Of a stretch of DNA of 42,829 nucleotides, positions 1-30,626 are shown one piece after another (the stretch's first letter is position 1; each line of letters starts with the position of its first letter). This DNA comes from an uncultured Ectothiorhodospiraceae bacterium (GTDB lineage Bacteria; Pseudomonadota; Gammaproteobacteria; Steroidobacterales; XN24): NCBI GenBank assembly GCA_964582505.1, contig CAZOSZ010000001.1:1-42829 (forward strand), given 5' to 3'. The notes below the pieces were generated by a model. That model worked only from the letters and a program-made list of their open reading frames with translations, was not told where the DNA came from and searched no databases. Made by a program: the position numbers and the translations under genes.

Positions 1-1248
1 CAGGGCTCGCGGCGCGCAGCGAGCGGCTCGCTGCGCGATCGCTCCGGCGCCGCGCTGGGCGGCGGCAACAGATTGCGTCGCGGGCTGGTGGCCGGAGAGA
101 TCGCGCTATCCTTCGTGCTGCTGGTCGGGGCCGGGCTGATGGTGCGCAGCTTCGTCGAGCTGCATCGCACCGAGCTGGGTTTCGACTCGCAGGGCGTGCT
201 GACTTTCCAGGTCAACCTGCCTTTCCAGCAGTACCCGGAGTTCGAGCAGCGCCGGCAGTTCTACTACGCTTTCCAGGAGCGGCTGGAGGCACTGCCCGGG
301 GTGTCGAGCGCGGCGGCGGCCGCGCCGCTGCCGCTCACCGGCCAGCCCTTCCACGGCCGCTACGCCACCGAACAGCCCACCGGCGAGGACATGGCCTACC
401 GGCAGGCGAACTACCGCGTGGTCCTGCCCGGCTACTTCGAGGTGATGCGTACCTCGCTGCTGGCCGGCCGCGAGCTGACGCGCGACGACGAGATCAACGA
501 ACGACGCGTGGCCGTGGTCGACGATGTGCTGGTGGCGGCCTCCTGGCCAGGCCAGGATCCGATCGGCAAGCAAGTCTGGGTCCGGCTGAACGATCCCGAG
601 CCGGTGCCTTTCGAGGTGGTCGGCGTGATCCGCCGCCAGCTGCAGGACAGCCTGCACGAGGCACCTCGCGAGAGTATCTATTTCACCGCCGGAGGCTCCG
701 GCCAGTTCGGCGTCAACGCCTGGGCGGTGCGCGCCGAGGGGGGGCACGAGGCGCTGCTGGCGCTGGTGCGGCGCGAGCTCGCAGCGCTCGATCCGGGCCT
801 GCCGCTGGCGCAGGCGCAGTCGATGCAGAGTTTTGTCACCGCGGCGATGGCCCGCACCCGTTTCGCCTTGCAGCTGATCGGCGCATTCGGCGTGGCAGCG
901 CTGTTGATCGCTGCGGTGGGATTGTATGCCGCGATCCACTTTCTGGTCAGTCAGCGTCGCGCGGAAATCGGCGTGCGCATGTCTTTTGGCGCGCGGCCCG
1001 TGGACATCTTCCGCCAGTTCCTGCGTCATGGCCTGGCGCTGGCGACGGTCGGAATCGTGCTCGGGCTGGCGGCAGCCCTGGTGCTGTCGCGCGCACTGGA
1101 CGCCCTGCTGGTGAACGTCGCGCCGACCGATCCGGCCACCTATGTGGCGATATCGGCCTGTTTCCTGGTGATTGCCCTGGCGGCCAGCTCGATTCCGGCA
1201 CTGCGCGCCGCGCGTGTCAATCCGATGACGGTGTTGCGCGATGAGTGA
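1..1248 (+). CDS. ABC transporter permease, MacB/FtsX duplicated (ADOP-type) #1, 5' end outside window
   Basis: Frame is open from base 1. Second-half permease motifs are present: LVAGEIALSFVLLVGAGLMVRSF, LGFD..GVLTF, PGYFEVM...LLAGR, GLYA...VSQRRAEIGVRMSFGA, and the tail PALRAARVNPMTVLRDE*. Confidence 0.93.
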   Translation, partial: QGSRRAASGSLRDRSGAALGGGNRLRRGLVAGEIALSFVLLVGAGLMVRSFVELHRTELGFDSQGVLTFQVNLPFQQYPEFEQRRQFYYAFQERLEALPGVSSAAAAAPLPLTGQPFHGRYATEQPTGEDMAYRQANYRVVLPGYFEVMRTSLLAGRELTRDDEINERRVAVVDDVLVAASWPGQDPIGKQVWVRLNDPEPVPFEVVGVIRRQLQDSLHEAPRESIYFTAGGSGQFGVNAWAVRAEGGHEALLALVRRELAALDPGLPLAQAQSMQSFVTAAMARTRFALQLIGAFGVAALLIAAVGLYAAIHFLVSQRRAEIGVRMSFGARPVDIFRQFLRHGLALATVGIVLGLAAALVLSRALDALLVNVAPTDPATYVAISACFLVIALAASSIPALRAARVNPMTVLRDE

Positions 1249-2489
1249 GTTCAGCATGTCGCTGTCACCCGGCGACTTCATCGATCTGCGGCGACAGGCG
1301 ACGCAATTCGAGGAGCTGGCTGCCGTCGCGACTTTTCGCCAGGTACTCTCCGGTGACGACGAGCAGCCCGTGCAGGTGACCGTGGCGGGGGTCACGACCA
1401 ACCTCCACGCGCTGGCGGTTGATCTTGAGGTTATCGGATTCGCGCTGTTGCTGTCCTTCCTGACTGCATGGATGTTTGGAATGTTGCCGGCCCTGCGTGC
1501 TGCGCGTCCGATGCCTGCGGCCGCCCTGCGGACCGGCACGCGGACCGCCGGGCGCCGTGGCAACGGGCTGAATCGTGGCGTCGCGGTCGCCGAGATTGCG
1601 CTTTGTTTCGTTCTGGTCGTTGGGTCGGTCCTGATTTTCAAGACCTTTTCGGAATTGCGGCGCGCGGATCTGGGTTACCAGCCCGCCGGTGTCCTGACCT
1701 TTACCGCCTTGTCGCGCGGTTTTGCTGAACAGCGCGCCGAAGTGATGCGCGTACTCAAGGAACAGCTCGCGGCGCTGCCCGGTGTCGAGGCGGTCGGCGC
1801 TGCGACGCCCATTCCACTCGATGGCTCGGTGATGAACATGCGCTGGGGCGTGCCTGCTGCGGCGGACGACCCGGAGTTGTTTCAGCAGGCAAATGTGCAT
1901 TTCGTTCTCCCCGGGTACTTCGACACCGTGCGTGCGCGCCTGCTGGCGGGGCGTGCGCACACCGAGTCCGACAATCGTGCCGACGCGCGGACCGTAGTGA
2001 TCGACGAGCTGCTCGCCAGAAAGGCATTCGGCTCCGCGGCGGCGGCGGTCGGTGAATTGCTGCTGTTTCGAACCGGTGAGACTCCGGAGTTGTTTCAGGT
2101 CGTTGGCGTCGTGGCGCACCAGCGCCATCAGGGTGTGGCGGCCGACGGCCGCGAGACCCTGTTCCTGACGCATGGCCAGGACAGGTACATGGCGCCGGCT
2201 CGCTGGCTGGTGCGCAGCTCCGCTGATCCGCTGGCGCTGGCGCTGATTGGCGCATTCACGGCGATTGCAGTGGTGCTGGCGATCATCGGTCTGTACGGAG
2301 TACTGACGGCCATGGTGCGGGAACGAACCGCTGAAGTCGGCGTCCGCATGGCATTCGGGGCCTCGCCGCTGCGCATCTTCAGACTGGTTGTCGGCGAGGG
2401 CCTGCTGCTCGGTGCAGTGGGAGTGACGGCCGGTGTCGGCGGCACGCGCGGCGAGCCTGCCCCCGGCCAGGGCGCTGCACGATGAGTGA
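1241..2489 (+). pseudogene. Degenerate ADOP-type permease #2 (internal deletions, frameshifted C-terminus)
   Basis: The 414-aa ORF 1241..2485 lacks the first TM segment. It jumps from VTTNL to ALAVDLEVIGFALL (~250 aa missing versus intact paralogs) and from SSADPLALA to LIGAF. The family tail ARAASLPPARALHDE* lies in another frame, ending TGA 2487-2489. Confidence 0.8.
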
Positions 2490-7484: not shown

Positions 7485-9938
7485 ATGAAAGCACTCGGGC
7501 AGGAACTGCGTTTCGCTGCCAGGACGTTGATCAACAATCCCGGCTTCACGCTGGTGATCATCGCCACATTGGCCCTTGGCATCGGCGCGAACACCGCGCT
7601 CTTCAGCGTGTTCCACGCCGTTGCCCTCAAGCCTTTGCCGTACCAGGAGCCGGAGCGGCTGGTAGCCCTCTGGGAAAGCGTCCCGGCGCAACAGGTGACG
7701 CACAACGTCGTCAGCAGCGGAAATTACCTTGACTGGCGCGACCGCAACGAGATTTTCGAGGCCATGGGCGCTTACTCCGGCACGTATCCTGTCGCGCTGT
7801 CGGGCGCAGACCGCCCGGAACAGATCGCGGCAGTCACCGCGACACCTTCGATGTTTCATGTGCTCGGCGTCCAGCCGGCGCTCGGCGCGTCGATCCCGCC
7901 GGGAAACGCGGAGGAGTTCGGCGACGACTGGACGCTGATCAGCCACGAATTATGGCGATCGTCGTTCGGCGCAGATCCGGCGGTGATTGGCAGGTCGGTT
8001 CGCGTTGATGACAGACTGGTCACGATCGCCGGCGTGATGCCGGCCGGGTTTCAATTTCCGGGCCGGGACGTTCAGATCTGGCTCCCGCGCCTGTTCGATG
8101 AACGCGACCGGGCGTCTCGCAAAGGCCGGCAGTGGAAGGTCATCGCGCGGCTCGCACCAGGCCTTAGCCTGGTCCAGGCCCGCGAACACATGCTGATGCT
8201 GGCGGACGTCATCCGCGACGAGCACCCTGCAGAAATGGACGGTTGGAGCGTGCAGGTAAATCCCCTGCATGGCGATTTCGTCGACGGCTATACAACCATG
8301 ATCACCGCAGGCGGCGGCAACGCCGCCATGCTCAGGCTCGTGATGGTCGTCGTCGGCGTGATTCTGCTGATTGCCTGTGCCAACGTCGCTGGCCTGATGC
8401 TGTCCCGTACCGCGGGGAGGCGCCACGAACTGGCGACCCGGCAAGCGCTCGGAGCGAGCAAGCGGCGGTTGATGGCCGGCGTATTCACAGAATGCCTGCT
8501 CTATGCCATGGCCGGAACGACGGCGGGTGTCCTGCTCGCCCATTGGGGGCTCAATGCGCTGATCGCGCTTGGGCCGGCGGACGTGCCACGTCTCCACGAA
8601 GCGTCGATCAGCGGTGAGGTGCTGGCCTTTGGCGCGTTTGTGACGATCGTCACGGTCGTGCTGGTGGGACTGTTGCCGGCCTTGACGGCATCCGGGCAGA
8701 ACCCGGCTGCTGCTCTGGCGAGTGGTTCGAGGGTGGGCGGTGGGCGCAGCTTGCACTGGCAGCGCGTGCTGGTCGTAACCGAGGTCGCGCTCGCCTGCGT
8801 GCTGACCGCCGGAGCAGGCCTGTTGACGCACAGCCTCGTGCGCCTACTTCAAGTTGACACCGGATTTGAGCCTGCGGGCGTGCAATTGATCGGTGTGCCG
8901 CTTCCGCAGCAACGGTATCCGGACTCCGATCGGCAAACACGCTTCCATGAACTGGTGATCGAGGAACTCGGCGCGCTACCCGGCACCGCGGCAGTCGCGG
9001 GAACCGCAGAGCCTCCGGTTGTCGGTCACCAGATGACTTTCGGCTTCGTCGTCGAGGGCCGGCGACTCGATGGGCCAAACGAGTTCGAGGAGTCGCAACC
9101 GGTGCGCGCGGTCACGAGGGATTATTTTCGGGTGCTCCGCGTCCCCCAGATCAGCGGGCGGGGCTTTGCCGCAGAAGACCGGGCCGGATCGCCTGCGGTC
9201 GCGGTGGTCAATCAGAGCTTCGCTCAAAGGCACTGGCCCAGTGAGAGCGCACTGGGCAAGCGCATCAGCCTGGACGGCCACGCCGGGCCGTGGATTGAAG
9301 TCGTGGGTGTCGTGGGCGATATGCGGCACAACGCCCTCGATCGGCCCGAGCCTCCCGTGATCTACCTGCCCTACGCGCAGAAGCCCTGGTGGTGGATGTC
9401 ATGGATGACGTACGTGATTCGTGCGAAGCCCGGTATCGCGATTCCTGCAGAATCGATTCGCGACGCCATCTGGCGGGTGGACCCGCAGATCGCCGTTGGC
9501 GCTGCGCAAAGTCTCGAGTCGCTCCATGCTGGGTCCAGCGCCCGGCGCAGGTTCACCACTGCGCTGCTTGGAGCCTTCGGAGCGCTGGCGCTCGCCTTGA
9601 GCCTGATCGGAATTTACGGCGTGCTCGCCCACGGCGTCGTGCGTCGCCACGGCGAGTTTGGGCTGCGAATGGCAGTCGGTGCAAATCGCACTGCGATCTT
9701 CAGACTCGTGATGTCCAATGGAATGAAACTGGTCGTCGCGGGGCTGGCCGTTGGCTTCGTACTGGCGCTGGGCTTCGCCCAGGCCATCTCGAGCCAGCTC
9801 TTCGGCGTCGCGACGCTCGACCCCCTGACCTTCACTCTGATGCCGGTGGCGATGGTCAGCCTGGCGCTTCTGGCCTGTCTGTTGCCGGCCGCGCGAGCAG
9901 CGCGGATCGACCCGATGCAGGCGCTGCGTGATGAGTGA
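7485..9938 (+). CDS. ADOP-type ABC permease #5
   Basis: Start moved to ATG 7485 (MKALGQELRFAARTL), 6 nt after GGAGG. Motifs ALGIGANTALFSV, LLIACANVAGLML, EFGLRMAVGA, RIDPMQALRDE. Confidence 0.94.
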   Translation: MKALGQELRFAARTLINNPGFTLVIIATLALGIGANTALFSVFHAVALKPLPYQEPERLVALWESVPAQQVTHNVVSSGNYLDWRDRNEIFEAMGAYSGTYPVALSGADRPEQIAAVTATPSMFHVLGVQPALGASIPPGNAEEFGDDWTLISHELWRSSFGADPAVIGRSVRVDDRLVTIAGVMPAGFQFPGRDVQIWLPRLFDERDRASRKGRQWKVIARLAPGLSLVQAREHMLMLADVIRDEHPAEMDGWSVQVNPLHGDFVDGYTTMITAGGGNAAMLRLVMVVVGVILLIACANVAGLMLSRTAGRRHELATRQALGASKRRLMAGVFTECLLYAMAGTTAGVLLAHWGLNALIALGPADVPRLHEASISGEVLAFGAFVTIVTVVLVGLLPALTASGQNPAAALASGSRVGGGRSLHWQRVLVVTEVALACVLTAGAGLLTHSLVRLLQVDTGFEPAGVQLIGVPLPQQRYPDSDRQTRFHELVIEELGALPGTAAVAGTAEPPVVGHQMTFGFVVEGRRLDGPNEFEESQPVRAVTRDYFRVLRVPQISGRGFAAEDRAGSPAVAVVNQSFAQRHWPSESALGKRISLDGHAGPWIEVVGVVGDMRHNALDRPEPPVIYLPYAQKPWWWMSWMTYVIRAKPGIAIPAESIRDAIWRVDPQIAVGAAQSLESLHAGSSARRRFTTALLGAFGALALALSLIGIYGVLAHGVVRRHGEFGLRMAVGANRTAIFRLVMSNGMKLVVAGLAVGFVLALGFAQAISSQLFGVATLDPLTFTLMPVAMVSLALLACLLPAARAARIDPMQALRDE

Positions 9939-9950: not shown

Positions 9951-11045
9951 ATGCTGAAGTGCACCCCGCAACTTGTCCCGGGCCTGGTGCTGATCGCCTG
10001 CAGCACCGCACATGGCCAGAACCAGGTGCCGTTTGACTCCGAGGCCTGGTCCATACTCAGCCGTGGGCACGAGCTCACCGAATACCATGGGCAGCCGGCG
10101 CTTTACCTGATGGACGGCTACGCTGTATTGAGTGCGGAGGAGATCAGGAACGGCGTCATCGAGTTCGAAATCGCCTTTTCCGGCGAGCGTGGCTTCGTCG
10201 GTGCATTCTGGAGAATGCGGGAGGGCTCGAATTACGAGCATTTCTACATGCGCCCGCACCAGTCCGGCAATCCGGACGCCAGCCAGTACACGCCCGTATT
10301 CAATGGCGTGACGGGATGGCAGCTCTATCACGGCACCGGCTACTCGGCACCCGTCGAGTACACGTATCAGGACTGGATGCCGGTGCGGATCGAGTTCTGG
10401 GAAGACCAGGCACGGGTGTTCCTGGGGAACCTGGACCGCCCGGTGCTCGAAATTCCTGAACTCAAGCATGCACCCACTGCCGGCAAAGTGGGCCTGATGG
10501 TCGCCGGCAGATTCGCGCCTGCCTGGTTCGCCAACTTCTCCTGGCACAGCTTTGATGCGCCGCCGTTCGAGCGCATTCCCGTTGCGGCCACCGTTGCGGA
10601 CGGTGCCATCATGAGCTGGGAGGTTTCATCGGCGTTCGACTCGGCGGCGCTGGCCAGGCTGGTCGACATCGACCCGCATCAGTACGCGGGTCTGAGCTGG
10701 CGGACGCTCGAGAGCGAGCCGAACGGCGTCGCCAACCTGGCACGGCTGCACGGCGTCCGGGCCGGGGCTGACACCGTGTTCGCACGCACTACGCTGCGAT
10801 CCGAGGGGCAGGCTACGAAGAGTGTTCGATTCGGATACAGCGACCGGGTCAGGGTCTATTTCAATGGGCGCCTGCTCTACGCAGGGGACCGCACGGCATT
10901 CAGCCGCGACTATCGCTACCTGGGGACGATCGGTCCGTATTACAGGCTTTATCTGCCACTGGAATCCGGCGACAACGAGTTGCTGTTCGCCGTCACGGAA
11001 GGCTTCGGGGGCTGGGGCATCATGGCCAGCGTCGAGGAGGACTGA
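9951..11045 (+). CDS. Exported hypothetical protein, two predicted beta-sandwich domains (N-terminal DUF1080/ConA-like by resemblance)
   Basis: Signal-peptide-like N-terminus (LVLIACSTAHG-Q) and aromatic/beta-rich sequence (NGVIEFEIAF, YEHFYMRPH, YSDRVRVYFNG, GDNELLFAV...GGWG). Fills the gap in the operon. Family call tentative. Confidence 0.7.
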   Translation: MLKCTPQLVPGLVLIACSTAHGQNQVPFDSEAWSILSRGHELTEYHGQPALYLMDGYAVLSAEEIRNGVIEFEIAFSGERGFVGAFWRMREGSNYEHFYMRPHQSGNPDASQYTPVFNGVTGWQLYHGTGYSAPVEYTYQDWMPVRIEFWEDQARVFLGNLDRPVLEIPELKHAPTAGKVGLMVAGRFAPAWFANFSWHSFDAPPFERIPVAATVADGAIMSWEVSSAFDSAALARLVDIDPHQYAGLSWRTLESEPNGVANLARLHGVRAGADTVFARTTLRSEGQATKSVRFGYSDRVRVYFNGRLLYAGDRTAFSRDYRYLGTIGPYYRLYLPLESGDNELLFAVTEGFGGWGIMASVEED

Positions 11046-11063
11046 CCTTTGGCGGGGTCAACC

Positions 11064-13655
11064 ATGACCGGACACGTCCTGCTCGCTGCCCTGGCGTCAC
11101 TCGCCTTGGCCGATGGGCTTCAGGCGCTGAACCTCGACATGCCCGCCGGCCTCGACGATGGCCTCGAGGTTGACTCACCCCGTTCAGCAGGCCTCAAGGC
11201 GGCGCCACTCGATGCGCTCGACCAGGCGATCGTCGACGAATCCTTTCCCGACACCACCAGCGTGCTGGTGCTCAAGGACGGCAAGCTGGTGTTCGAGCGG
11301 TATTTCGGGGTTGGGGGCATCGAAGTGCTGAATGACACCCGTTCGGCCATGAAATCGGTGACGGCAATTGCGGTAGGAGTGGCGCTGGCTGATGGCGCGC
11401 TTTACTCCGTCGATGAGGCGGCCTTTGACAGGCTCGAGGACCTCGCGCCCTTCGCCCACGACGGTCCCCTGAAGCGCCAGATCACGCTCGCGGACCTGCT
11501 GACGATGTCCTCGTCGCTGGACTGCAACGATTGGGACGAGCGAAGCCCTGGCAACGAGGAGAACATGTATCCCCTCCGGCACTGGTCCCGCTGGGCGGTC
11601 GACATTCCGGTAACGACGGATTACCAGCGAGGTGAAACTGGACGCGCGCGCTTTTCCTACTGCACTGCGGGCACGTTCCTTCTCGGTCAGATCCTCGAGC
11701 GTGCAGTCGGCGAACCGGTGGACGAATACATCAACGGGCGACTGTTCGATCCACTCGGCATATCGTTGCGCGAGTGGCCGCACTCACCCAGCGGCGAAGT
11801 CATGACGGGTGGCGGGCTTCGTCTGCGCAGCCGTGATCTGCTCAAGCTCGGGAAGCTGGTGCAGTCCGGCGGTCGCTGGGGTGAGCGCCAGATAGTCGCG
11901 ACGGACTGGATATCCGAGATGCTCACGGTCAGGCACCGTGTGGATGGGGAGCAGCAATACGGATATCAGTACTGGCAGCGGCAGTACCAGTCGCCGTGCG
12001 GCAGGCTCGATGGCTGGTCCATGTCGGGCAATGGCGGCAATGTGATTGTGCACTTTCCGAGTCAGGCGATGGTGGCGGTGGTCACCAGGCAGCACTATAA
12101 CCGGCGAGGCATGCACGAGCAGACGGTTCGCCTGCTCGAGGAGCATGTCCTGGCCGCTTTGAATTGCGTCGCCCCCGTGGCGGCAAGCGGAGACGCATTG
12201 CAGGCGGTGCGCGATTACCGCGCGACGCACGCGAACAAGATTCTCGGTGAGTTGCGCGATTTCCTCACGCTGCCCAACGTGGCCAGCAATCGTGACGACA
12301 TCGAGCGCAACGCAGACCACCTCGTGGCACTTCTAGAACAGAGGGGCATCGCCGCGCGCACCCTGCGGGTGCCGGACGCTCCGCCGGCCGTTTACGGCGC
12401 CTACGACGTCCCAGGCGCGGCGCGCACGGTGGTCTTCTACGCTCATTACGACGGCCAACCCGCACCGATTGAGCAGGGCTGGGTCAGCGACCCCTGGATG
12501 CCGGTGCTGCGCGCCGGTGCGCTGGCCGACGGCGCCCATGAACTCGATTGGGCTGCGCTGGACGGCGACATCGATGAGGACTGGCGCATCTACGCGCGTT
12601 CGGCCAGCGACGACAAGTCGCCGATCATCGCGCTGCTCGCCGCGTTCGACGCACTCCTGGCAGCCGGTATCGAGCCGTCCGTGAACCTGCGCTTCTTCTT
12701 CGAAGGTGAGGAGGAAGCCGGCTCGCCGCACCTCGCCGATATTCTGCGCGAGCACCGCGATCTGCTGGCTGCGGATCTATGGCTGTTCTGCGACGGCCCG
12801 GTGCACCAGGACGGGCGCGGCCAGGTGGTGTTCGGCGTACGCGGCGCGATCGGGCTCGAGATGACCCTGTACGGCCCGTTGCGCGCGCTGCATTCGGGCC
12901 ACTATGGCAACTGGGCGCCGAACCCGGCTGCGCGCCTGGCAGAGCTCATCGCGTCGATGCGGGACGGCGAGGGCCAAATCCTGGTCGACGGTTTCTACGA
13001 CCGGGTCCGTCCGCTCGGAGATGCCGGGCAAGCCGCGCTCGCAGCGGTGCCCGATGCCGATGCGGCGCTGCGCCGGGACCTCGCGATCGGGCGCGCCGAG
13101 GCGAACAATGCGCGACTGGTCGAACGGATCATGCTGCCGGCGATCAATGTGCGCGGCATTCGCGCCGGCGGCGTGCAGGACGAGGCGGCCAACGCGATCC
13201 CGACCGAGGCGCACGCGTCGCTGGACATCCGCCTGGTGCCGGATCTCGGTCCGGACGAGGTGAAAACCCTCCTCGAAGCTCACGTACGCCGGCAGGGCTA
13301 TACGATCGTCCGCGACACGCCGGAGGCGGATATGCGCAGGCGCCATCCGAAGCTCGTCCGCATCAACTGGAGCAGCGGCTATCCCGGCCTGCGCACGCCG
13401 CTTGACCTGCCGGTATCCCGCGCCGTGGTCGCGGCAGTCGAAGCGGCGCGCGGCGAGGCCGTGGTGCGCATACCCAACCTCGGGGGCAGCCTGCCGATCT
13501 ACCTGTTCGACGAAATCCTCGCTACGCCGCTGATCATCGTGCCGATGGTGAACCACGACAACAACCAGCACGCCGCGAACGAGAACCTGCGCATCGGCAA
13601 CCTCTGGACCGGCATCGACATGTACGCGTTTGTCATGATGCGGCTGGACTGGTGA
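11064..13655 (+). CDS. Fusion: beta-lactamase-like serine hydrolase + M20/M25/M40 metallopeptidase
   Basis: Signal peptide. N-half has SxxK (RSAMKS), ITLADLLTMSS, FSYCT and SGNGG. C-half has YAHYDGQP, ARSASDDKS, FEGEEEAGS, LHSGHYG and NNQHAANEN. One continuous ORF; ATG 11064 preferred to TTG 11049. Confidence 0.9.
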   Translation: MTGHVLLAALASLALADGLQALNLDMPAGLDDGLEVDSPRSAGLKAAPLDALDQAIVDESFPDTTSVLVLKDGKLVFERYFGVGGIEVLNDTRSAMKSVTAIAVGVALADGALYSVDEAAFDRLEDLAPFAHDGPLKRQITLADLLTMSSSLDCNDWDERSPGNEENMYPLRHWSRWAVDIPVTTDYQRGETGRARFSYCTAGTFLLGQILERAVGEPVDEYINGRLFDPLGISLREWPHSPSGEVMTGGGLRLRSRDLLKLGKLVQSGGRWGERQIVATDWISEMLTVRHRVDGEQQYGYQYWQRQYQSPCGRLDGWSMSGNGGNVIVHFPSQAMVAVVTRQHYNRRGMHEQTVRLLEEHVLAALNCVAPVAASGDALQAVRDYRATHANKILGELRDFLTLPNVASNRDDIERNADHLVALLEQRGIAARTLRVPDAPPAVYGAYDVPGAARTVVFYAHYDGQPAPIEQGWVSDPWMPVLRAGALADGAHELDWAALDGDIDEDWRIYARSASDDKSPIIALLAAFDALLAAGIEPSVNLRFFFEGEEEAGSPHLADILREHRDLLAADLWLFCDGPVHQDGRGQVVFGVRGAIGLEMTLYGPLRALHSGHYGNWAPNPAARLAELIASMRDGEGQILVDGFYDRVRPLGDAGQAALAAVPDADAALRRDLAIGRAEANNARLVERIMLPAINVRGIRAGGVQDEAANAIPTEAHASLDIRLVPDLGPDEVKTLLEAHVRRQGYTIVRDTPEADMRRRHPKLVRINWSSGYPGLRTPLDLPVSRAVVAAVEAARGEAVVRIPNLGGSLPIYLFDEILATPLIIVPMVNHDNNQHAANENLRIGNLWTGIDMYAFVMMRLDW

Positions 13656-14299: not shown

Positions 14300-14319
14300 G
14301 GGGCGAGGAGGAACATGAC

Positions 14320-14691
14320 ATGATTAACCAGACAGATACCGAAATCGCCGCGGTGTTCAAGGTCAGCAAGCTGGACCGGACGCTGGCGTTCTACAGCGAC
14401 GTGCTGGGGCTCGAGATCGGGCGTCACGACGACGGACACGGCGGCGCCTACGGCATGGGCCGGGTCGGCAGTGCGTGGTTCATTTTTTTCGAGGAGGCGG
14501 GCGTTGCGCCGGGTGGTTCACCGATTCTCGTCTTCAGCGTGAAAGAGGGCATTGAGAAGACGGTCGAGGCACTGGCGCTCAAGGGCGTCGAGATCGTGGT
14601 GCCGGTCAGCGAGGCACCGGGTGGCTTGAGCGCGGACTTCCTCGACCCGGACCGCCACGTGTTGAGCCTGTACCAGCCGGGGCCATCATGA
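14320..14691 (+). CDS. VOC (glyoxalase/bleomycin-resistance) family protein
   Basis: SD GAGGAGG; motifs VSKLDRTLAFYSDVLGL...FLDPDRHVLSLYQ. Confidence 0.88.
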   Translation: MINQTDTEIAAVFKVSKLDRTLAFYSDVLGLEIGRHDDGHGGAYGMGRVGSAWFIFFEEAGVAPGGSPILVFSVKEGIEKTVEALALKGVEIVVPVSEAPGGLSADFLDPDRHVLSLYQPGPS

Positions 14692-18910: not shown

Positions 18911-21349
18911 ATGGGAGACGTCCGTTATGCCTTGCGTTCACTGGGCAGAAGCCCGGGCTTCACGACGGTTGCGGTGCTGACCCTCGCACTGGGAATCGGC
19001 GCGAACGTCGCGCTGTTCAGTGTCATCAGGGCGGTCATGCTCGAGCCCCTGCCATACCGGGACCCCGCCGGCGTTGCGATGATCTGGAGCCAGTGGAGCG
19101 CGTATCCCAAGACCTGGGTATCCATGCCCGAGTATCACCAGTATCGCGAGCACTTGCAGAGTTTCGACGACCTGGCACTGTTCCAGTCCTTCGAGCTGAA
19201 CATCACCGAAGGCGAGGCCGAGCGAGTCAAGGCGTCAACGATCACCACCAATCTGCTGCGCGTGCTCGGGATCACACCGGTGGCCGGCCGCGACTTCAAT
19301 GACGAGGACGGCATCGAGGGGCGAGACGATGTGGTGATCATCAGCCATGGACTGTGGCAGGCGCGCTACGCGGGTGATCCCGGCATCGTCGGCAATGCGA
19401 TCTCGATCAGCGGCAGGCCCAGACTGGTGGTGGGCGTGCTGCCGAGGGGATTCAGGCTTCCGCTGGACTTCGCCGGGGGCGAACCGTCACAGGTCTTCCT
19501 GCCGCTGGTCGTGGAGCCGAATACCGGCGCCATACCTCATGCGGGCGGCAGCCATTCGTACTTTGCAGTCGGCCGGCTGCTGCCGGGCGTCAGCGAGGCG
19601 GCGGCCAATGCAGAACTCGAAGCTCATGTGCGCCGGCTCACCGATCAGGGCGTCTATGGACCCGACATGGGTTTTCGTGCATTCGTCGTGACGGCATCGA
19701 ACGAGGTCGCCGGCCCGTTGCGTCCGGCTCTGATGGTGCTGCTCGGGGCGGTGATACTGGTGCTGCTGATCGCCTGCGCGAACGTCGCCGGCCTCGCGCT
19801 GGCGCGAGGCGAGGATCGGCGGCACGAGTTTGGGGTCCGCGCCGCTCTGGGTGCGGGCCGCACACGGCTGGCGCGACAGCTGCTGATCGAGAGCCTGATG
19901 CTCGGCGGCGCCGGCGCGCTGATCGGCGTGTGGATTGCCTGGCTGTGCGTGCAACTCATCACGACGACTGCACCTGAGCGGCTGGCGCGCCTGGCCGACG
20001 CCTCGGTCGATGCCCCCGTGATGGGCTTTGCCATCTTCCTGGCAATGCTTGCCTCGATACTGGCCGGGCTGATGCCGGCGGTCTATGCGGCGCGCGTGAA
20101 TCCGCATGGCAACCTCAGGGAGGGGGGTTATGGCCACACGGCGGGGCGTTCCCGGCATGCCGCGCGCCGCGGCATCGTCGCCGCGCAGGTGGCGCTTGCG
20201 GTCGTGCTGGTGACCGGGGCGGGGCTCAGCCTTCGAAGCTTCTGGAACATCGTGGCGCTGGACCCAGGATTCGATGCGAACAACGTGCTCACCATGCGGC
20301 TGGCGCCAAATGCGGTTTTCTACCCTGACGATGCAGCGGTGAGCGGGTACTACGGGGAACTGTTGCGCCGTGTACGCGGGTTGAGCGGAGTCGAACAAGC
20401 GGGCCTGGTTCGGCTGTTGCCGATCGATACCGAGATGGGCGACACCTGCGTGGAGGTCGAGCGGTACGCTGCACCCCACGGACATTGCCCGCCGGCGGAG
20501 TGGCAGGCCGCGAGTCCCGGTTACTTCGAGGCCATGGGCGTGCGCCTCGCCGAGGGCAGGATGTTCACGGATGGGGATGACCGGGACGCGGCTCTGGTTG
20601 CGGTCGTCAACGAGGCATTCGTCCGTCGCTACATCCCGGACGGCGACGCCCTCGGCACGCGCATTCGCTTCGCATTCAGGGAAGGGCTGCCCTGGCATAC
20701 CATCGTCGGCGTGGTGGCCGACGTCAGGCACAATGCAGTGACCGCCCAAGCCAGACCCACGTTCTACAGGCCGCACGCCCAGTGGGCCGTGCCCGCCGGC
20801 TCGCCACAACGCACCATGACACTGGTGGTCCGCGCTCGGCAGGAGTTCGAGGTGCTGACCACGTCGATTCGAGAAGTCGTGCAGGCGCTCGACGCCCGCG
20901 TCCCATTGTCAAGGATCCAGACGATGGACGAGATCCTCGGCAACGCGGTGGCCCAGCCACGTTTCACGCTGCAGTTGCTCGGTGCCTTCGCAATGCTTGC
21001 GCTTGGGCTTGCGGCGATCGGCATCTACGGTGTCGTCTCATACACGGTGGCAGCGCGTCGCCGCGAGCTGGGTATCCGCATGGTGCTGGGCGCCAGTCGC
21101 GGGGCCGTTACCTGGCTCTCGCTGCGTGATGGCCTCGTGAATGCGGCGTTCGGCTCCGCGCTGGGCCTGGCCGCCGCGTACTTCAGTATGCGCGCCTTGG
21201 CTGGCCTGTTATACGAGGTCGATACGGCCGATCCTGCCACTTACCTGGGTGTGATCGGCTTGCTTGGCGCGGCGGCGCTGCTGGCGAGCTGGTTGCCGGC
21301 ACGCCGCGCCGCGCGCATCGACCCGATGGTGGCCCTGCGGGAGGAGTGA
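18911..21349 (+). CDS. ADOP-type ABC permease #7 (812 aa)
   Basis: Motifs DVRYALRSL, ALGIGANVALFSV, LLIACANVAGLALAR, ELGIRMVLGA, RIDPMVALREE. Confidence 0.95.
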   Translation: MGDVRYALRSLGRSPGFTTVAVLTLALGIGANVALFSVIRAVMLEPLPYRDPAGVAMIWSQWSAYPKTWVSMPEYHQYREHLQSFDDLALFQSFELNITEGEAERVKASTITTNLLRVLGITPVAGRDFNDEDGIEGRDDVVIISHGLWQARYAGDPGIVGNAISISGRPRLVVGVLPRGFRLPLDFAGGEPSQVFLPLVVEPNTGAIPHAGGSHSYFAVGRLLPGVSEAAANAELEAHVRRLTDQGVYGPDMGFRAFVVTASNEVAGPLRPALMVLLGAVILVLLIACANVAGLALARGEDRRHEFGVRAALGAGRTRLARQLLIESLMLGGAGALIGVWIAWLCVQLITTTAPERLARLADASVDAPVMGFAIFLAMLASILAGLMPAVYAARVNPHGNLREGGYGHTAGRSRHAARRGIVAAQVALAVVLVTGAGLSLRSFWNIVALDPGFDANNVLTMRLAPNAVFYPDDAAVSGYYGELLRRVRGLSGVEQAGLVRLLPIDTEMGDTCVEVERYAAPHGHCPPAEWQAASPGYFEAMGVRLAEGRMFTDGDDRDAALVAVVNEAFVRRYIPDGDALGTRIRFAFREGLPWHTIVGVVADVRHNAVTAQARPTFYRPHAQWAVPAGSPQRTMTLVVRARQEFEVLTTSIREVVQALDARVPLSRIQTMDEILGNAVAQPRFTLQLLGAFAMLALGLAAIGIYGVVSYTVAARRRELGIRMVLGASRGAVTWLSLRDGLVNAAFGSALGLAAAYFSMRALAGLLYEVDTADPATYLGVIGLLGAAALLASWLPARRAARIDPMVALREE
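21272..21349 (+). repeat. 78-nt direct repeat, copy 2 (3' tail of permease #7)
   Basis: 72/78 identical to 18827-18904 by manual alignment. Confidence 0.85.
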
Positions 21350-21350: not shown

Positions 21351-22259
21351 ATGCGCAACCTGAACGTCTGGAGCATTTTGCTGTTGATCGCGCTCGCGTC
21401 GGCCACGGTGCGTGCCGTGGAGATCAGCGAGCACTGCCGTGGCGACGAGCATCGCCAGTTCGACTTCTGGCTCGGCGCCTGGGAAGTCCATGGTGCCGAC
21501 GGCCAGCTGGCCGGCCACAACGATATTCGGCGCGTCGCCGGAGGCTGCGCGCTGCAGGAGAGCTGGCGCGGGGTCAGGGGCGGCGAGGGCATGAGCATCA
21601 ACAGCTACGACGCCGATACGAAGCGGTGGACCCAGCGCTGGGTCGGCGTCGGCGTCACGCTGTGGCTGGAAGGTGGGTTCGAGGAAGGGCGGATGGTGCT
21701 TACCTCGCCGGGGCAGCGCAGCACGCCGCGGGGACCGGTCATTGACCGAATCAGCTGGTCTGCCCTCGACGACGGCCGAGTGCGACAGCTCTGGGAGGTG
21801 TCCGGCGACCACGGCGCGAGCTGGCAGACGATTTTCGAAGGCTTGTATTCCAGGCTCGGGCCAGCCACCGGAGACAACACGGCACTGGTGCGTCAGGTGG
21901 CCGATACCGAGCGGGCGTTCGCCAAAACCATGGCCGATCGCGATTATGGCGGGTTTCAATCCTTCATCGCCGACGATGCGATCTTTCTGACCGGCGGAGG
22001 CGACGCGCTCCGTGGCAAGGCAACGATTGCGGCGCGCTGGAAGCGATTCTTCGACGGGCCTGCGGCCCCGTTCGCCTGGGATCCCGAACATGTCATCGTG
22101 CTTGATGACGGAACACTGGCACAGACCCACGGGCCGGTGATGGATGTAGACGGCAGGATCGTATCGCGTTTCCAGTCGGTGTGGCGCCGTGAATCCTCGG
22201 GTGAATGGCGCGTGGTGTTTGATAACGGCTACCCGGTGTGTCCCGTTCCTGGGCCATGA
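21351..22259 (+). CDS. Exported two-domain protein: DUF1579-like beta domain + NTF2/SnoaL-like (DUF4440/YybH-type) domain
   Basis: ATG 21351 lies 6 nt after GGAGG; signal peptide. Domain 1: EHRQFDFWLGAWEV...VRQLWEVSGDHGASW. Domain 2: QVADTERAFAKTMADRD...SVWRRESSGEWRVVFDNG. Confidence 0.8.
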   Translation: MRNLNVWSILLLIALASATVRAVEISEHCRGDEHRQFDFWLGAWEVHGADGQLAGHNDIRRVAGGCALQESWRGVRGGEGMSINSYDADTKRWTQRWVGVGVTLWLEGGFEEGRMVLTSPGQRSTPRGPVIDRISWSALDDGRVRQLWEVSGDHGASWQTIFEGLYSRLGPATGDNTALVRQVADTERAFAKTMADRDYGGFQSFIADDAIFLTGGGDALRGKATIAARWKRFFDGPAAPFAWDPEHVIVLDDGTLAQTHGPVMDVDGRIVSRFQSVWRRESSGEWRVVFDNGYPVCPVPGP

Positions 22260-22291: not shown

Positions 22292-24709
22292 ATGGGAACA
22301 ATCTGGTTTGACCTGAAGCTGGCGCTCCGCACACTGGCGCGCAGCCACGGCTTCGTCGCAGTGGCGGTGACGGTGATGGCGCTCGGCGTGGGGGCGACGA
22401 CCTTCGCCTTCATCGCCATCAACGGGATCGTCTTGAGCCCACTGCCGTACCCGGAAGCCGACGAGCTGGTGCACATTGAACTGGTTTCTCCGGACCAGCC
22501 CCGGGGTTTCGAGATCGGCATGCACGACCTGCGCGACCTGGCCGGCCGGCAGCAGTCCTTTCACAGCCTGTTCGCGTATTACAGCGGCACGCTGAATGTG
22601 AGCGACCATGAGCTGCCGATCCGCCATGACGGCGCGTTCGTGACGGCGAATGCCCTGCAACAGATCGGCGTGCCGCCACTTCTCGGCCGGCAATTCATGG
22701 ACGGCGAGGATCGCCCGGGCACGCCGCTTGTGGTGGTCATCGGCCGGGAGCTGTGGCGACAGCGCTACAACGAGGACCCGGACATCATTGGCCGGGTGAT
22801 CCGCGTGAACGGCGAGCCGGCCACGGTGGTTGGGGTGATGCCACAAGATTTCCAGTGGCCCCACCGCCACCAGATCTGGGTGCCGATGCGGCAGGACCTT
22901 GAGTCCCTGGCACGCGGTGACACCGTGACGGTCGAGGCATTCGGGCGTTTGCGCCCGGGCGTGACGCTGCAGCAGGCGAGTGCGGAGTTCGCCACGATGT
23001 ACGCTGCAGTGCTCGCAGACAACCCCGGCTGGAACGCCGGTGCGACGCCCTGGCTGAAGCCCTATCGGGAAGAGTTCGTTGGAGATCAAACTGCCGCGGT
23101 GCTTTCGGCCATGCAAGTGGCCACCCTGCTGGTGCTGCTGATTGCCTGTGCCAACGTCGCCAACCTCATGCTCGCGCGCACCTCGGCACGCCGTCGGGAA
23201 CTTTCGGTGCGTACTGCCCTGGGGGCAAGCCGCTGGCGAGTGGTATCCGGCACGCTGATCGAGAGTCTGCTGGTGAGCGTCGCGGGAGGTGCCATCGGCA
23301 TCAACATTGCCCGTGCCGGCGGCGCCGCGGTCGAGCGCTACCTGATCGAGAGCGGCGATCCGCTGCCTTACTGGATGAGTTTTGAAGTCGACTGGCGGGT
23401 GGCGGGATTCGCCTTCGCGGTCGCGTGTGCAGCGGGCGTTGCGGCCGGGCTCGCTCCGGCTCTACGGGCGGCGCGCCACGATGTGACCGAGGGACTGAAG
23501 GCGGGTGGAGGGGGCGGTTCGAGCGTCTCGGCCGGCCGTTTCACGCGCACCCTTGTGACCATCGAGATCGCGCTGAGCTGTGCGCTGCTCATCGGCGGCG
23601 CGATGGCGGTGCGCTCCGTTGTCAGTCTCCAGTTCATGTCCATCGGCGCGGACGTCAGCGGCGTGATGTCGGGGCGCATCGGGCTGTTCGATTCGCAGTA
23701 TCCCGACGAAGCCAGCAGGCGCCAGTTCTGGGCACAGCTGGAGGCGCGCATGGCGGAGCTGCCAGGTGTCAGCCATGTCGCCGTGACCACCAGCCTGCCG
23801 GCCTACAGCGCCGGTGTCAGCCCATACCTGCCCGAGGGTCGCGAGCCTCCGGCTGACGATCGTTACCCGGTGGCCCGTAGCGTCGTGGTCACTCCAGGTT
23901 TCTTCGAGACCTTCGACGTTCCCTTGCTGGCCGGGCGTAATTTCCATGCCAGCGACCGCGCCGAGACCCTGCCGGTGGTACTGGTCAACAGTACTTTCGC
24001 GGAACGCGCCTGGCCGGGCGAGGATGCCATCGGCAAGCACCTGCAACTTGGCGGTGCGAGTGCGACACAGCAGCACGTGACAGTCATTGGAGTGACCGGC
24101 GATGTCTATCACCAATCGCTCGACGATCCGCTGGAGCCGGCGCTCTACCTGCCGCTCGCGCAGGCCGACGCTCGCTTCGCCAGCATCGCCGCGCGAACGC
24201 CGGGGGACCCCGCGGCACTCGCCAACCCGATCCGTGAGGCAGTGCGTGCGGTCGATGCCGACCTGCCGATCTATTGGCTGGAGCCGGCACAAATGTGGGT
24301 TGACCAGCGCCGTTCCGGACACCGGCTGCTGGGCGTGATTTTCGGCCTGTTCGGCCTGGCGGCAGCGATCCTTGCCTCGGTGGGCGTGTACGGGGTGCTG
24401 GCCTTTGGCGTGGCACAGCGAACCCGCGAGTTCGGAGTGCGCCGTGCGCTCGGGGCCGATAAGAGCGGCATTGTCGGGCTGGTACTCGGCCAGGGGATGC
24501 GGCAGCTATTCATCGCGCTGCCGATCGGTCTCGTACTGGCCTTCGGGCTCGGCCAGATACTGCGAGAAGTGCTTGCCGTATCCAGCACGGATCCGCCGAG
24601 TTTTCTCGGCGTGCCACTGCTGATCGGCATCATCGTGATCGCGGCGAGCCTGGTGCCGGCCTTGCGGGCGGCGCGAGTGCAGCCGATGGAGGCGCTGCGT
24701 TACGAATGA
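22292..24709 (+). CDS. ADOP-type ABC permease #8
   Basis: Start ATG 22292 after AAGGGAG (MGTIWFDLKLALRTL). Motifs LLIACANVANLMLAR, AQRTREFGVRRALGA, RVQPMEALRYE. Confidence 0.94.
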   Translation: MGTIWFDLKLALRTLARSHGFVAVAVTVMALGVGATTFAFIAINGIVLSPLPYPEADELVHIELVSPDQPRGFEIGMHDLRDLAGRQQSFHSLFAYYSGTLNVSDHELPIRHDGAFVTANALQQIGVPPLLGRQFMDGEDRPGTPLVVVIGRELWRQRYNEDPDIIGRVIRVNGEPATVVGVMPQDFQWPHRHQIWVPMRQDLESLARGDTVTVEAFGRLRPGVTLQQASAEFATMYAAVLADNPGWNAGATPWLKPYREEFVGDQTAAVLSAMQVATLLVLLIACANVANLMLARTSARRRELSVRTALGASRWRVVSGTLIESLLVSVAGGAIGINIARAGGAAVERYLIESGDPLPYWMSFEVDWRVAGFAFAVACAAGVAAGLAPALRAARHDVTEGLKAGGGGGSSVSAGRFTRTLVTIEIALSCALLIGGAMAVRSVVSLQFMSIGADVSGVMSGRIGLFDSQYPDEASRRQFWAQLEARMAELPGVSHVAVTTSLPAYSAGVSPYLPEGREPPADDRYPVARSVVVTPGFFETFDVPLLAGRNFHASDRAETLPVVLVNSTFAERAWPGEDAIGKHLQLGGASATQQHVTVIGVTGDVYHQSLDDPLEPALYLPLAQADARFASIAARTPGDPAALANPIREAVRAVDADLPIYWLEPAQMWVDQRRSGHRLLGVIFGLFGLAAAILASVGVYGVLAFGVAQRTREFGVRRALGADKSGIVGLVLGQGMRQLFIALPIGLVLAFGLGQILREVLAVSSTDPPSFLGVPLLIGIIVIAASLVPALRAARVQPMEALRYE

Positions 24710-27945: not shown

Positions 27946-29301
27946 ATGAAGACGCGCGCTGCCCGGATACTCGTGGCCGACGACCAGCGAGATGTGCTCG
28001 AAGCCCTGCGACTGTTGCTCAAGGGCGAGGGCTACCAGGCGGAGAGTTACAGCCACCCCAGCGCACTCATCGAGACGCTGCGCGGGCAGTCGGCGGACGT
28101 GGTGTTGATGGACCTCAACTACACGCGCGACACCACCTCCGGAGAGGAGGGCCTGGACGCGATCGGACGGATTCGCGCCTTCGACCCGCACACGCCGATC
28201 GTGGTGATGACGGCCTGGGGCACCATTGAGCTGGCGGTCGAGGCGATGCGCCGCGGCGCGCAGGATTTCATCGAGAAGCCGTGGGACAACGCGCGGCTTC
28301 TGACGGTCCTCGGCACGCAGGTTGCGCTGGGACAGGCCCTGCATCGTGCCCGTGCGCTCGAGACCGAGAACCGACAGCTCCGCGGCGATGCTGGCGAGAT
28401 GGTCGCAGGATCGGCCGCCATGCAGCCAGTGCTCGAGACCGTCGAGCGGATCGCTCCATCGGATGCCAACGTGCTGATCACCGGCGAGAGCGGCAGCGGC
28501 AAGGGACTGATCGCGCGCCTGATCCACGAGCGCTCGCCGCGCGCCGCGCGCAGCCTCGTGGTGGTCAACATCGGCAGCCTGGCCGAAACGGTGTTCGAGA
28601 GCGAGATGTTCGGCCACGTCAAGGGCGCGTTCACCGACGCCAGGACCGACCGCATCGGGCGCTTCGAGCTGGCGGACGGGGGCACGCTGTTCCTCGACGA
28701 GATCGCCAACCTGCCGGTCACCCAGCAGGCGAGGCTGCTGCGCGTGCTGGAGGACGGCGAGTTCGAGCGGCTCGGCTCCTCGCGCACCCAGCAGACCGAC
28801 GTGCGGGTATTGTCGGCGACCAACGCCGAGGTCGATGCCGAAGTCGAGGCGGGACGCTTGCGCAGCGACCTGCTGTATCGCCTGAACACCATCCACATCC
28901 ATCTGCCGCCGCTGCGTGAACGTGGTGACGACATCGTGGCGCTGGCGCAACGTTTCCTGGAACGCCACGCGCGACGATACTCGCGGCAGGTCGAGGCGCT
29001 CACCGACCCGGCGCTGGCGGCCCTGCGTCGCTATCAATGGCCGGGCAACGTGCGCGAGCTCAACCATGTAATCGAGCGCGCTGTGCTGATGTGCCACGGT
29101 GGCACTCTCGGCCCTGCAGACCTGCGCCTCGATGGCGCAACGGCGACGGGCGATCGCGGGCCGGTGACCCTCGACGAGGCCGAGCGCGAGCTGATCAAGA
29201 CGGCACTGGCCCGCCACGGCGGCAATGTGATCGCCGCCGCGGTAGAGCTGGGCTTAAGTCGCTCGGCGCTGTACCGGCGCATGGAGAAACTCGGCCTGTG
29301 A
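27946..29301 (+). CDS. Sigma54-dependent response regulator (NtrC family: REC-AAA+-Fis HTH)
   Basis: ILVADD, VLMDLN, MTAWG, FIEKPW; GESGSGK, ESEMFGHVKGAFTDA, GTLFLDEI, WPGNVREL; LGLSRSALYRRM. Confidence 0.96.
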   Translation: MKTRAARILVADDQRDVLEALRLLLKGEGYQAESYSHPSALIETLRGQSADVVLMDLNYTRDTTSGEEGLDAIGRIRAFDPHTPIVVMTAWGTIELAVEAMRRGAQDFIEKPWDNARLLTVLGTQVALGQALHRARALETENRQLRGDAGEMVAGSAAMQPVLETVERIAPSDANVLITGESGSGKGLIARLIHERSPRAARSLVVVNIGSLAETVFESEMFGHVKGAFTDARTDRIGRFELADGGTLFLDEIANLPVTQQARLLRVLEDGEFERLGSSRTQQTDVRVLSATNAEVDAEVEAGRLRSDLLYRLNTIHIHLPPLRERGDDIVALAQRFLERHARRYSRQVEALTDPALAALRRYQWPGNVRELNHVIERAVLMCHGGTLGPADLRLDGATATGDRGPVTLDEAERELIKTALARHGGNVIAAAVELGLSRSALYRRMEKLGL

Positions 29302-30626
29302 AGCGACGGCGAGGGCTGAGATACCAGGATCGCGTGCTACTGCTGGTGTTGCTGGCAATCGGGCCCGCCTGGGTGACCGCCACGCTGTTGCTGTGGCACT
29401 GGGAAGCCGACGTGTCCCTGCGATGGACCCTGTTCATCTTGATATCGCTGCCAGCCATGGGCGGCGCGTTGGCGGTTCGTCGACGCGTGGTATTTCCCCT
29501 GCAGTCACTGGCCAATCTCCTCGAAGCGCTGCGCGAGGGCGACTATTCGTTGCGCGGCCGCAATGTCGATCCTGAGGATGCGGTCGGCGAGGTCATGGTC
29601 GAAGTGAACTCCCTGAGCCGTACCCTGCATCGCCAGCGGCTCGAGGCGCTCGAGGCCGGGGTGCTGCTGCAGAAGGTGATCACCGAGGTGGACCTCGCGG
29701 TGTTCGCTTTCGATGCCGAGCGCCGGTTGCGGCTGGTCAATCGCGCGGGCGAGGTGTTGCTGGCCCGCAGGGCGAGCCAGTTGCTGGGTCGCCAAGCCGG
29801 CGAGCTGGGGCTTGCGCCGATGCTCGACGAAGTTTCCGGCCGCATCGTCTCCCACGTCTTCCCGGGCGGAGCGGGACGCTGGGAGATTCGACGCCGTGGC
29901 TTTCGCGAGGGGGGCCGGCCGCACGAGTTGCTGGTCATCTCTGAGCTGAGCCACGCTTTGCGTGAAGAAGAACGCCAGGCCTGGCAGCGCCTGGTGCGCG
30001 TCATCGGTCACGAGCTCAACAATTCCCTGGCGCCGATCAAGTCGATGGCCGGCACGCTGCAGCGGCTCATCGGCCGCGAAATGCTGGCAGACGACTGGCG
30101 CGAGGATGCCGGGGCGGGCCTGGCGGTAATTCACGACCGGGCCGAGTCGCTGGGCCGTTTCATGGGCGCGTACGCGCGATTCGCGAGACTGCCGCTGCCA
30201 ACGCGGCGTGAAGTCGACTTCCCGGCGCTGTTGCGCCGCGTGGCGTCGCTGCACGGCAGGCTCGTCCAGGTCGAACCGGGCCCGGAAGTGCAGCTTCATG
30301 CCGATGCAGATCAGCTCGAGCAAGTGCTGATCAACCTGATCAAGAACGCGGTCGAGGCGGCTGGAGAACTCGGCAGGGTGTATGTTCGCTGGCAACTTCA
30401 GGACGGCGAACTGGCGGTCGAGATCGAAGACAACGGTCCCGGACTGGCACGCACGGACAACCTGTGGGTGCCGTTTTTTACCACCAAGCCCGGCGGCACC
30501 GGCATCGGACTGGTGTTGAGCCGCGCGATCATCGAGAACCACGGCGGCACGGTCACCCTCGAAAACCACGCGAGCGGGCGCGGCTGCATTGCGCGCATCG
30601 ACCTGCCCCTGGGCGCCGGGCGCTGA
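29298..30626 (+). CDS. Sensor histidine kinase (2 TM, HAMP-like, PAS-like, HisKA, HATPase)
   Basis: GTG 29298 overlaps the RR stop. Motifs IGHELNNSLAPI, QVLINLIKNAVEA, EDNGPG, PFFTTKPGGTGIGL. Confidence 0.93.
   Translation: MKRRRGLRYQDRVLLLVLLAIGPAWVTATLLLWHWEADVSLRWTLFILISLPAMGGALAVRRRVVFPLQSLANLLEALREGDYSLRGRNVDPEDAVGEVMVEVNSLSRTLHRQRLEALEAGVLLQKVITEVDLAVFAFDAERRLRLVNRAGEVLLARRASQLLGRQAGELGLAPMLDEVSGRIVSHVFPGGAGRWEIRRRGFREGGRPHELLVISELSHALREEERQAWQRLVRVIGHELNNSLAPIKSMAGTLQRLIGREMLADDWREDAGAGLAVIHDRAESLGRFMGAYARFARLPLPTRREVDFPALLRRVASLHGRLVQVEPGPEVQLHADADQLEQVLINLIKNAVEAAGELGRVYVRWQLQDGELAVEIEDNGPGLARTDNLWVPFFTTKPGGTGIGLVLSRAIIENHGGTVTLENHASGRGCIARIDLPLGAGR

Follow-up and report, generated by a model that had tools for sequence, protein, structure and literature searches.

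We analysed a 42,829-nucleotide contig (C1; "the window", which is the whole stretch of DNA under study) from the assembly of an uncultured Ectothiorhodospiraceae bacterium (G000), and we describe here a long row of permease genes of the ADOP family together with the adaptor, the two ATPases and the two-component system that share its locus. The assembly comprises 2.8 Mb in 392 contigs and is 91.8% complete, and the sequencing runs that hold DNA of C1 are soil metagenomes.

Organisation of the locus

The left end of the locus lies on another contig, C99, which is read on its minus strand and is the direct upstream neighbour of the window. The ends of C99 and C1 share no exact overlap, and the join was established via bridging contigs: single contigs spanned both ends in four out of four runs, with a gap of 5 bases each time as calculated from their lengths (2858 = 1580 + 1273 + 5; 675; 639; 347), and the reading frame of the permease gene P1 is kept across it. 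An end of contig C20 carries the same 25 bases with which reversed C99 begins, so C20 may be the next contig upstream.

The full locus reads, in order, a sigma54-type promoter, an MFP adaptor, a permease, a first ATPase (A1), nine permease genes interspersed with seven further genes (here called cargo), a second ATPase (A2), a response regulator (RR) and a histidine kinase (HK), and it extends over 36.4 kb from the adaptor start to the kinase stop (Table 1). Ten permease genes, one of them decayed, thus stand beside two ATPases, one adaptor and one regulator pair. Gaps between the 19 window genes range from -19 to 164 bases, a compact, operon-like layout. In a congener (G001) the entire locus is found on one contig, with MFP, permease, A1, nine permeases with cargo, A2, RR and HK.

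An initial annotation, made from the window alone, had described an array of at least nine permease genes on one strand, mostly with overlaps or short gaps, with a single ABC ATPase. Nine plus-strand genes with MacB_PCD and FtsX domains do lie between positions 1 and 27058, but only seven of the nine are whole in the window (776–831 amino acids), and the row is broken by the seven non-permease genes (9951–16429 and 21351–22259). The single ATPase proved wrong because the contig break hides A1: the window holds one such gene, and the second lies upstream on C99. The NtrC-type regulator and the kinase that had been read after the ATPase were both confirmed. So was the absence of PadR, with no PadR match anywhere in the assembled genome, and the row does run on past the left edge, where C99 carries the adaptor, the tenth permease, A1 and the N-terminal half of P1. 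A leftward extension had been proposed in search of an adaptor, a TolC gene and a -24/-12 promoter; it yielded the adaptor and the box, but no TolC gene at the locus.

Table 1. Protein-coding features of the locus. Positions refer to the window unless C99 is given; the curated cut-off of TIGR03434 (ADOP) is 622.3 bits; G001, G002, G003 and G032 are compared genomes.
Feature	Position	Strand	Evidence and remarks
MFP adaptor, RND-type	C99 5800-4547	-	TIGR01730 114 bits, cut-off 94.9
Tenth permease (first in the row)	C99 4470-2083	-	TIGR03434 591.6 bits, just under cut-off
P1 permease, N-terminal half	C99 about 1213-1	-	TIGR03434 positions 5-386
P1 permease, C-terminal half	1..1248	+	TIGR03434 positions 391-803; gene cut by contig end
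P2 permease, decayed	1241..2485	+	Internal and terminal deletions, from comparison with G001 orthologue
P3 ADOP permease, 831 aa	2545..5040	+	TIGR03434 817.6 bits; orthologues in G001, G002, G003, G032
P4 ADOP permease, 816 aa	5033..7483	+	TIGR03434 769.2 bits
P5 ADOP permease	7485..9938	+	TIGR03434 858.9 bits; singleton at 48% cut, no orthologue in compared loci
Cargo, 364-aa protein, signal-peptide-like N-terminus (by eye)	9951..11045	+	No Pfam or NCBIfam match
Cargo, serine beta-lactamase-fold hydrolase fused to M20 peptidase, signal-peptide-like N-terminus	11064..13655	+	PF00144, PF01546, PF07687
Cargo, ECF-type sigma factor	13652..14299	+	PF04542; TIGR02937 under cut-off
Cargo, glyoxalase/VOC-fold protein	14320..14691	+	PF00903
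Cargo, DUF6265 protein, signal-peptide-like N-terminus	14688..15365	+	PF19780
Cargo, metallo-beta-lactamase-fold hydrolase, signal-peptide-like N-terminus	15347..16429	+	PF00753
P6 ADOP permease, 805 aa	16487..18904	+	TIGR03434 857.5 bits
P7 ADOP permease	18911..21349	+	TIGR03434 885.5 bits; no orthologue in compared loci
Cargo, DUF1579-like and DUF4440/SnoaL-fold protein, signal-peptide-like N-terminus	21351..22259	+	PF14534, weak PF07617
P8 ADOP permease	22292..24709	+	TIGR03434 802.9 bits; orthologues in G001-G003
P9 ADOP-like permease, 776 aa	24728..27058	+	TIGR03434 566.7 bits, under cut-off
ABC ATPase A2, 219 aa	27223..27882	+	PF00005
Sigma54-dependent response regulator	27946..29301	+	PF00072 receiver, PF00158 AAA+ with GAFTDA loop, PF02954 Fis HTH
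Histidine kinase	29298..30626	+	Membrane hairpin, HAMP-like helices, PAS-like domain, DHp, HATPase (Pfam, model)

Permease genes and their turnover

Two MacB_PCD and two FtsX domains were found per chain of about 800 amino acids in all seven whole window permeases and in the C99 permease. The assignment to ADOP made in the initial annotation held for six of the nine window genes, which scored over the TIGR03434 cut-off; P9 fell below it, P1 is split and P2 is decayed. The permease profile matches MacB at 2.5e-40, which points to a type VII fold, and the predicted model of P6 (pLDDT 87.5) shows eight membrane helices and two periplasmic domains, with YbbP (9ge6) and MacB as its top Foldseek matches. 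Against the MacB equivalog PRK10535 (fused ATPase and four-helix permease, cut-off 966) the best window score was 215 bits, no window permease matched the YbbP family, and no gene of the row matched the TesA family.

Eight intact paralogues of the row are only 26–35% identical to one another. Across 60 permeases, mean identity was 0.32 and 0.30 in the two periplasmic domains versus 0.55 and 0.48 in the two coupling-helix regions, and the C-terminal motifs differ between the two permease halves. P1 is one open reading frame in G001, 76–78% identical to both halves, and P2 retains only about residues 61–114 and 362–745 of the intact 804-residue G001 orthologue. Contigs of other runs span the junctions of P2 gap-free, so an assembly artefact was rejected and P2 is a real pseudogene. 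Contigs of two runs skip 105 bases within P2 (window 1662–1768; 25 letters on the short side), which may represent a further deletion allele.

The comparison of array content among close relatives, as had been suggested, revealed a shuffled permease set: the rows of G000 and G001 both count ten permease genes, seven lineages being shared (64–96% identity) and three being their own in either genome, and the gene order differs. In loci of the taxonomic order, the P6 lineage often comes after A1. The first permease and A1 (C99 4470–1219 versus G001:C3 10455–13754) are 96% and 93% identical between the two genomes, while the other shared permeases reach 64–78% and A2, RR and HK 79–88%; the front of the row may therefore have been exchanged recently between the two species. 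G001 also holds an eleventh ADOP-like gene outside the row (G001:C54 651–2768), a true orphan in a one-core genome.

The adaptor and the two ATPases

The cytoplasmic N-terminus of the adaptor opens with MDIPRP in G000 (C99 5800–5760), G001 and G032, which could be a docking peptide. A1, encoded on the minus strand of C99, and A2 are 46% identical. A1 has the full catalytic motif set, and its D-loop Asp was found in 42 of 42 loci. In A2, the Walker A motif, the Walker B glutamate, the signature and the H-switch are intact relative to the nucleotide-binding domains of MacB; the D-loop Asp is replaced by His, the Arg after the signature by Leu, and Ser/Asn is found after the switch His. The D-loop His was present in all 12 commonest motifs among 80 A2 loci (77 sequences), a set gathered with A2-derived patterns, and an unfiltered search was used as a control. 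Among its single-domain representatives (55 multi-match rows being set aside), His was found in 26 out of 31 at 55% identity or more, and Asp in 42 out of 46 below 50%. In a tree of 33 hand-chosen rows, the A2 sequences of five phyla formed one clade (100/100) with a long branch, grouped with A1 (96/87).

A relevant precedent is TAP, in which replacing the D-loop Asp by Ala blocks hydrolysis when the consensus site is affected but does no harm at the degenerate site (PMC4242082). The other MacB-type ATPases of the genome adjoin partners of their own (LolCE, FtsX, YbbP, or a permease with an adaptor), and one further copy comes after pspA at a contig end.

Distribution of the core in other genomes

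We inspected the surroundings of the closest A2 relatives (80 loci, mostly from Gemmatimonadota and Acidobacteriota, many of them cut off early) and found that the MFP-A1-A2-RR-HK core recurs across several phyla. The regulator was seen in 55 loci, A1 in 42 and the adaptor in 37; 13 loci had the complete core row without a permease, and A2 stood directly before the regulator in 41. A TolC-like gene came right before 14 out of 39 adaptor open reading frames in other loci. A2 was single-copy in every genome where it was found.

Five genomes with a permease-free core had at least 53, at least 53, 41, 11 and at least 53 scattered ADOP matches (at most the best 53 candidates were scored per genome, so that these counts are a floor), with one A2 each and one to three A1. 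In particular, the closed genome G042 had at least 53 ADOP matches among the best 53 of 133 candidates, one A1 and one A2. The original idea of one motor for many permeases thus survives as few motors for many permeases (10:2 here; at least 53 to one A1 and one A2 in G042), while a literal single ATPase is refuted, and the gene that had been taken for the sole motor is A2, the non-canonical and dispensable of the two.

Among 121 genomes of the order, ADOP matches were found in 14 and were absent from the other 107; the kinase was found in 9 and A2 in 7. The nine kinase genomes were exactly the nine with at least two ADOP matches (at most the best 7 candidates scored per genome), and within the genus ADOP and A2 occurred in the same 4 of 15 genomes. 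Among 300 other genomes of the class, A1 was found in four, all with ADOPs, and A2 in none; three of these four (G170, G219 and G291) have MFP, A1, ADOPs, RR and HK together. G070 and G115 likewise combine A1, ADOP and kinase without an A2 match (G115 has frameshifted genes and G070 is in 440 contigs). These A1-only arrays reject an obligatory A2. Judged by gene content, A2 is optional, and the constant part consists of A1, adaptor, regulator and kinase, since A1-only genomes keep them; the five genomes with ADOP, A1 and kinase but without A2 also make A1 the likely main motor.

Regulatory elements and the kinase

A -24/-12 box, TGGCACGCTCTTTGCT, lies just 5' of the adaptor start (C99 5829–5814) and is among only three strict boxes of this kind in the genome. 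About 90 bases 5' of it is the palindrome GTCCC-N6-GGGAC (C99 5919–5904), the only one of the 38 core palindromes of the genome that is followed by a sigma54-type box. The genome also has rpoN, and the regulator has a GAFTGA-type loop; with the box and the upstream activator site, the features of a sigma54-activated operon are all present at the level of motifs. A sigma54-type box preceded the first gene in all ten class-level loci examined, two of them with a relaxed -12 element. A published promoter survey ties sigma54 to FtsX-like permeases and to the ATPases that belong to them, in gamma-Proteobacteria, Opitutia and Bacteroidia (PMC12316311). No sigma70 promoter was found before A2 on the plus strand, and promoter- and terminator-like counts over the row were at shuffle level.

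The kinase model (mean pLDDT 72.9, hairpin 86–93) has helices at residues 9–34 and 39–79, joined by a four-residue outer turn, and the same short loop was seen by eye in 43 homologues. Since the modelled kinase is without an outer sensor domain, it must take its input from the membrane, from a partner protein or from its PAS domain; for a kinase that reads a partner protein, the established example is BceS (PMC5985334, PMC10314905).

Interpretation and alternatives

On balance we favour the reading that the ten double permeases are interchangeable front ends of one type VII, MacAB-TolC-like pump, with two shared ATPases, one adaptor and a TolC-type channel that is presumably encoded at another site of the genome. 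A1, which is present in every arrangement, would bind any of the permeases in dimeric form, at the two conserved coupling helices, and drive mechanotransmission. A2 would have an accessory role, pairing with A1 or taking its place in some of the complexes; by likeness to TAP, its D-loop change may slow or uncouple one hydrolysis site. The divergent periplasmic head of each permease would select a different amphipathic compound or peptide from the periplasm or the outer leaflet and hand it over to TolC via the adaptor. Related compounds would be broken down by the exported hydrolases of the row; family knowledge and the hydrolase cargo suggest substrates of this kind. From within the bilayer, the kinase would sense how active the transporter is or what state the membrane is in, and would phosphorylate the regulator, which would then activate the sigma54 promoter from the palindromic site. 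Permease genes would come, go and reorder as cassettes. In other phyla, scattered permeases would be served in trans by the same core and would look orphan for that reason.

Several points weigh against this proposal. Motor sharing, substrates, co-transcription and sensing, and likewise a single 36-kb transcript, are read here from sequence and models, and stronger conservation of membrane parts would be expected in any family of this type. The sampled genomes are kin and not independent. G041 and G043 hold extra A1 copies, in five genomes of the order a lone ADOP match occurs without such a kinase, and in one of them, G034, the ADOP has its own adaptor and ATPase; on this gene content, not every ADOP depends on the core. 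The locus has no TolC gene, and matches to OEP lie on five other contigs of the genome. The palindrome was seen in eight of the ten class-level loci, from which its pattern was itself derived; in other phyla it occurred in 9 out of 19 upstream stretches versus 5 out of 34 control stretches, and of 25 loci there, only 3 had a sigma54-type box in the 2.3 kb that precede the adaptor. Finally, the median gap before A2 is 180 bases after a permease and 303 after A1, versus 18 between A2 and RR.

The two ATPases could instead form an obligate asymmetric heterodimer, in which each half of the fused permease binds one of them and one ATP site is of the consensus kind, the other being degenerate. The single-copy state of A2, its position as an old sister clade of A1, the D-loop His that marks close but not distant relatives, the unlike C-terminal motifs of the two permease halves and the tolerance of a D-loop change at the degenerate site of TAP (PMC4242082) would all fit. 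We nevertheless consider this arrangement unlikely: G170, G219 and G291 have adaptor, A1, ADOP row, RR and HK without A2, G070 and G115 add to them within the limits given above, and no convincing A1-A2 fusion protein was found among 150 representatives (one was a partial chimera).

It is also doubtful that A2 is a sensing arm, forming slow, signalling-competent complexes that are read by the kinase in a Bce-like flux-sensing manner while A1 pumps. The regulator follows A2 directly in about half of the 80 loci, with the short median gap mentioned above, and in G131 and G069 other genes part A2-RR-HK from MFP-A1-permease; the loss of hydrolysis on D-loop change in TAP (PMC4242082) and the requirement of BceS for its transporter in sensing (PMC5985334) are in line with such a role. 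The same kinase family, however, stands beside A1 alone in five genomes, three acidobacterial loci have A2 before MFP-A1 with no regulator in view, BceS contacts its permease via membrane helices and lipids (PMC10314905), and the cytoplasmic PAS-like domain of the kinase could itself be the input.

Alternatively, the permeases might lift membrane-bound compounds to the periplasmic hydrolases encoded among them, as in YbbAP-TesA and without export through TolC. YbbP is the best fold match, signal-peptide-like starts were seen by eye in 5 out of 7 cargo genes and hydrolase folds in 3 out of 7, and a TolC gene is missing at the locus. An RND-type adaptor heads the row, though, and belongs to the conserved core, cargo genes switch neighbours or disappear between congeners, and the P6 model has eight membrane helices where YbbP has ten (PMC12646458), so that we regard this reading as improbable. 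A mostly neutral accumulation of gene duplicates and insertions, with only a few members in use, might account for the decay of P2, the additional skip within it and the lack of the whole set in 11 of 15 congeners, but it is very improbable given that 9 out of 10 reading frames are intact, that paralogues are so divergent while G001 orthologues keep 64–96% identity, that Psychroflexus translates its ADOP clusters at a high level (PMC3914696) and that 80 of 102 ADOPs are transcribed in an acidobacterium (PMC10564751).

The reading of interchangeable permeases on a common pump can be taken further, with MFP-A1-A2-RR-HK as the hub that would universally provide ADOPs with engine and sensor. Up to a hundred interchangeable permeases of one cell would then run on one motor pair, a single intramembrane kinase would read their activity Bce-style and A2 would tune the signal, giving soil Gram-negatives a modular, fast-reshuffled repertoire for chemical surveillance. 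This wider claim is speculative, and we hold it to be rather unlikely in full.

Comparison with known systems and significance

ADOP permeases usually have no adjacent ATPase and are often paired with PadR. The locus departs from this family trait, having two ATPases and an adaptor in the row and a genome in which no PadR was matched. Nor does the array stand alone. Psychroflexus torquis has a cluster of ten highly translated ADOP paralogues, which resembles ours in its duplicated MacB_PCD-FtsX permeases, its many divergent paralogues and its clustering with transporter genes, including ATP-binding ones (PMC3914696). Unlike that cluster, for which the accessible account names no shared motor, promoter or regulator, the row described here lies inside a defined core of adaptor, two ATPases and two-component system. 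Large ADOP numbers have been counted before, with 102 in one acidobacterium (PMC10564751) and 28 and 33 in two Dyadobacter (PMC11573002).

The locus shares with MacAB-TolC (5nik, 5lil, 5gko; PMC5985334) the MacB-type periplasmic and membrane domains, the MacB-type ATPases and the RND-type adaptor, and differs in that the two halves are fused in one chain, the ATPases are separate and of two kinds, ten permeases are found per adaptor, no TolC gene is present here and control is of the sigma54 type. Similarly, YbbAP-TesA (PMC12646458; 9ge6) has a single-chain double permease with two periplasmic domains, a separate ATPase and hydrolase genes nearby, but the permeases here have 8 predicted helices versus 10 and 12% identity, an adaptor is present, and the YbbP-like gene of this genome lies elsewhere. 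As in BceAB-BceRS (PMC10314905, PMC5985334), a type VII transporter adjoins a kinase with two membrane helices and almost no outer loop. The host, however, is Gram-negative, and adaptor, NtrC-type sigma54 activator, PAS-like kinase domain and many permeases set the locus apart; the P6 model, with eight helices and two periplasmic domains, also departs from the BceB topology of ten helices and one extracellular domain. MsmK and MceG are likewise single ATPases for several transporters (PMC4519317, PMC9947336), but they serve importers of other ABC types, whereas tens of permeases per core are seen here.

ADOP clusters and the link to sigma54 are already published. We found no literature on the MFP-A1-A2-RR-HK hub, the A1/A2 pair or the palindrome in a search that had most subscription papers and supplements outside its reach, and no mention of ADOP permeases was found in the accessible part of the Solibacter paper (PMC3174227).

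Few paralogue families of soil bacteria are larger than the ADOPs, which have been without a known motor, regulator or substrate. A conserved variant of the type VII pump makes the question of what powers these orphans testable: a single-copy core would offer one gene, A1 or the regulator, whose loss should silence the whole family, together with a predicted activator site and a naturally D-loop-variant ATPase for study. The present locus is a compact case, with all parts in cis (TolC aside) and congeners that display the turnover.

Neighbouring and cargo genes

Downstream, on the minus strand between 30660 and 34464, two sulfotransferase-family genes, a glycosyltransferase-2 match and a 2OG-Fe(II) oxygenase face the kinase in convergent orientation; these genes were not beside the core in the congener loci compared. 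Among the cargo genes, the metallo-hydrolase scored under every named beta-lactamase cut-off shown in NCBIfam. At the place matching the serine-hydrolase/M20 fusion, G001 has the M20 part alone, which marks the fusion as lineage-specific in this comparison. No anti-sigma gene was recognised near the ECF sigma factor and the VOC-fold gene (13652–14691), and this pair stays together inside the G001 row, with identities of 76% and 87%, respectively.

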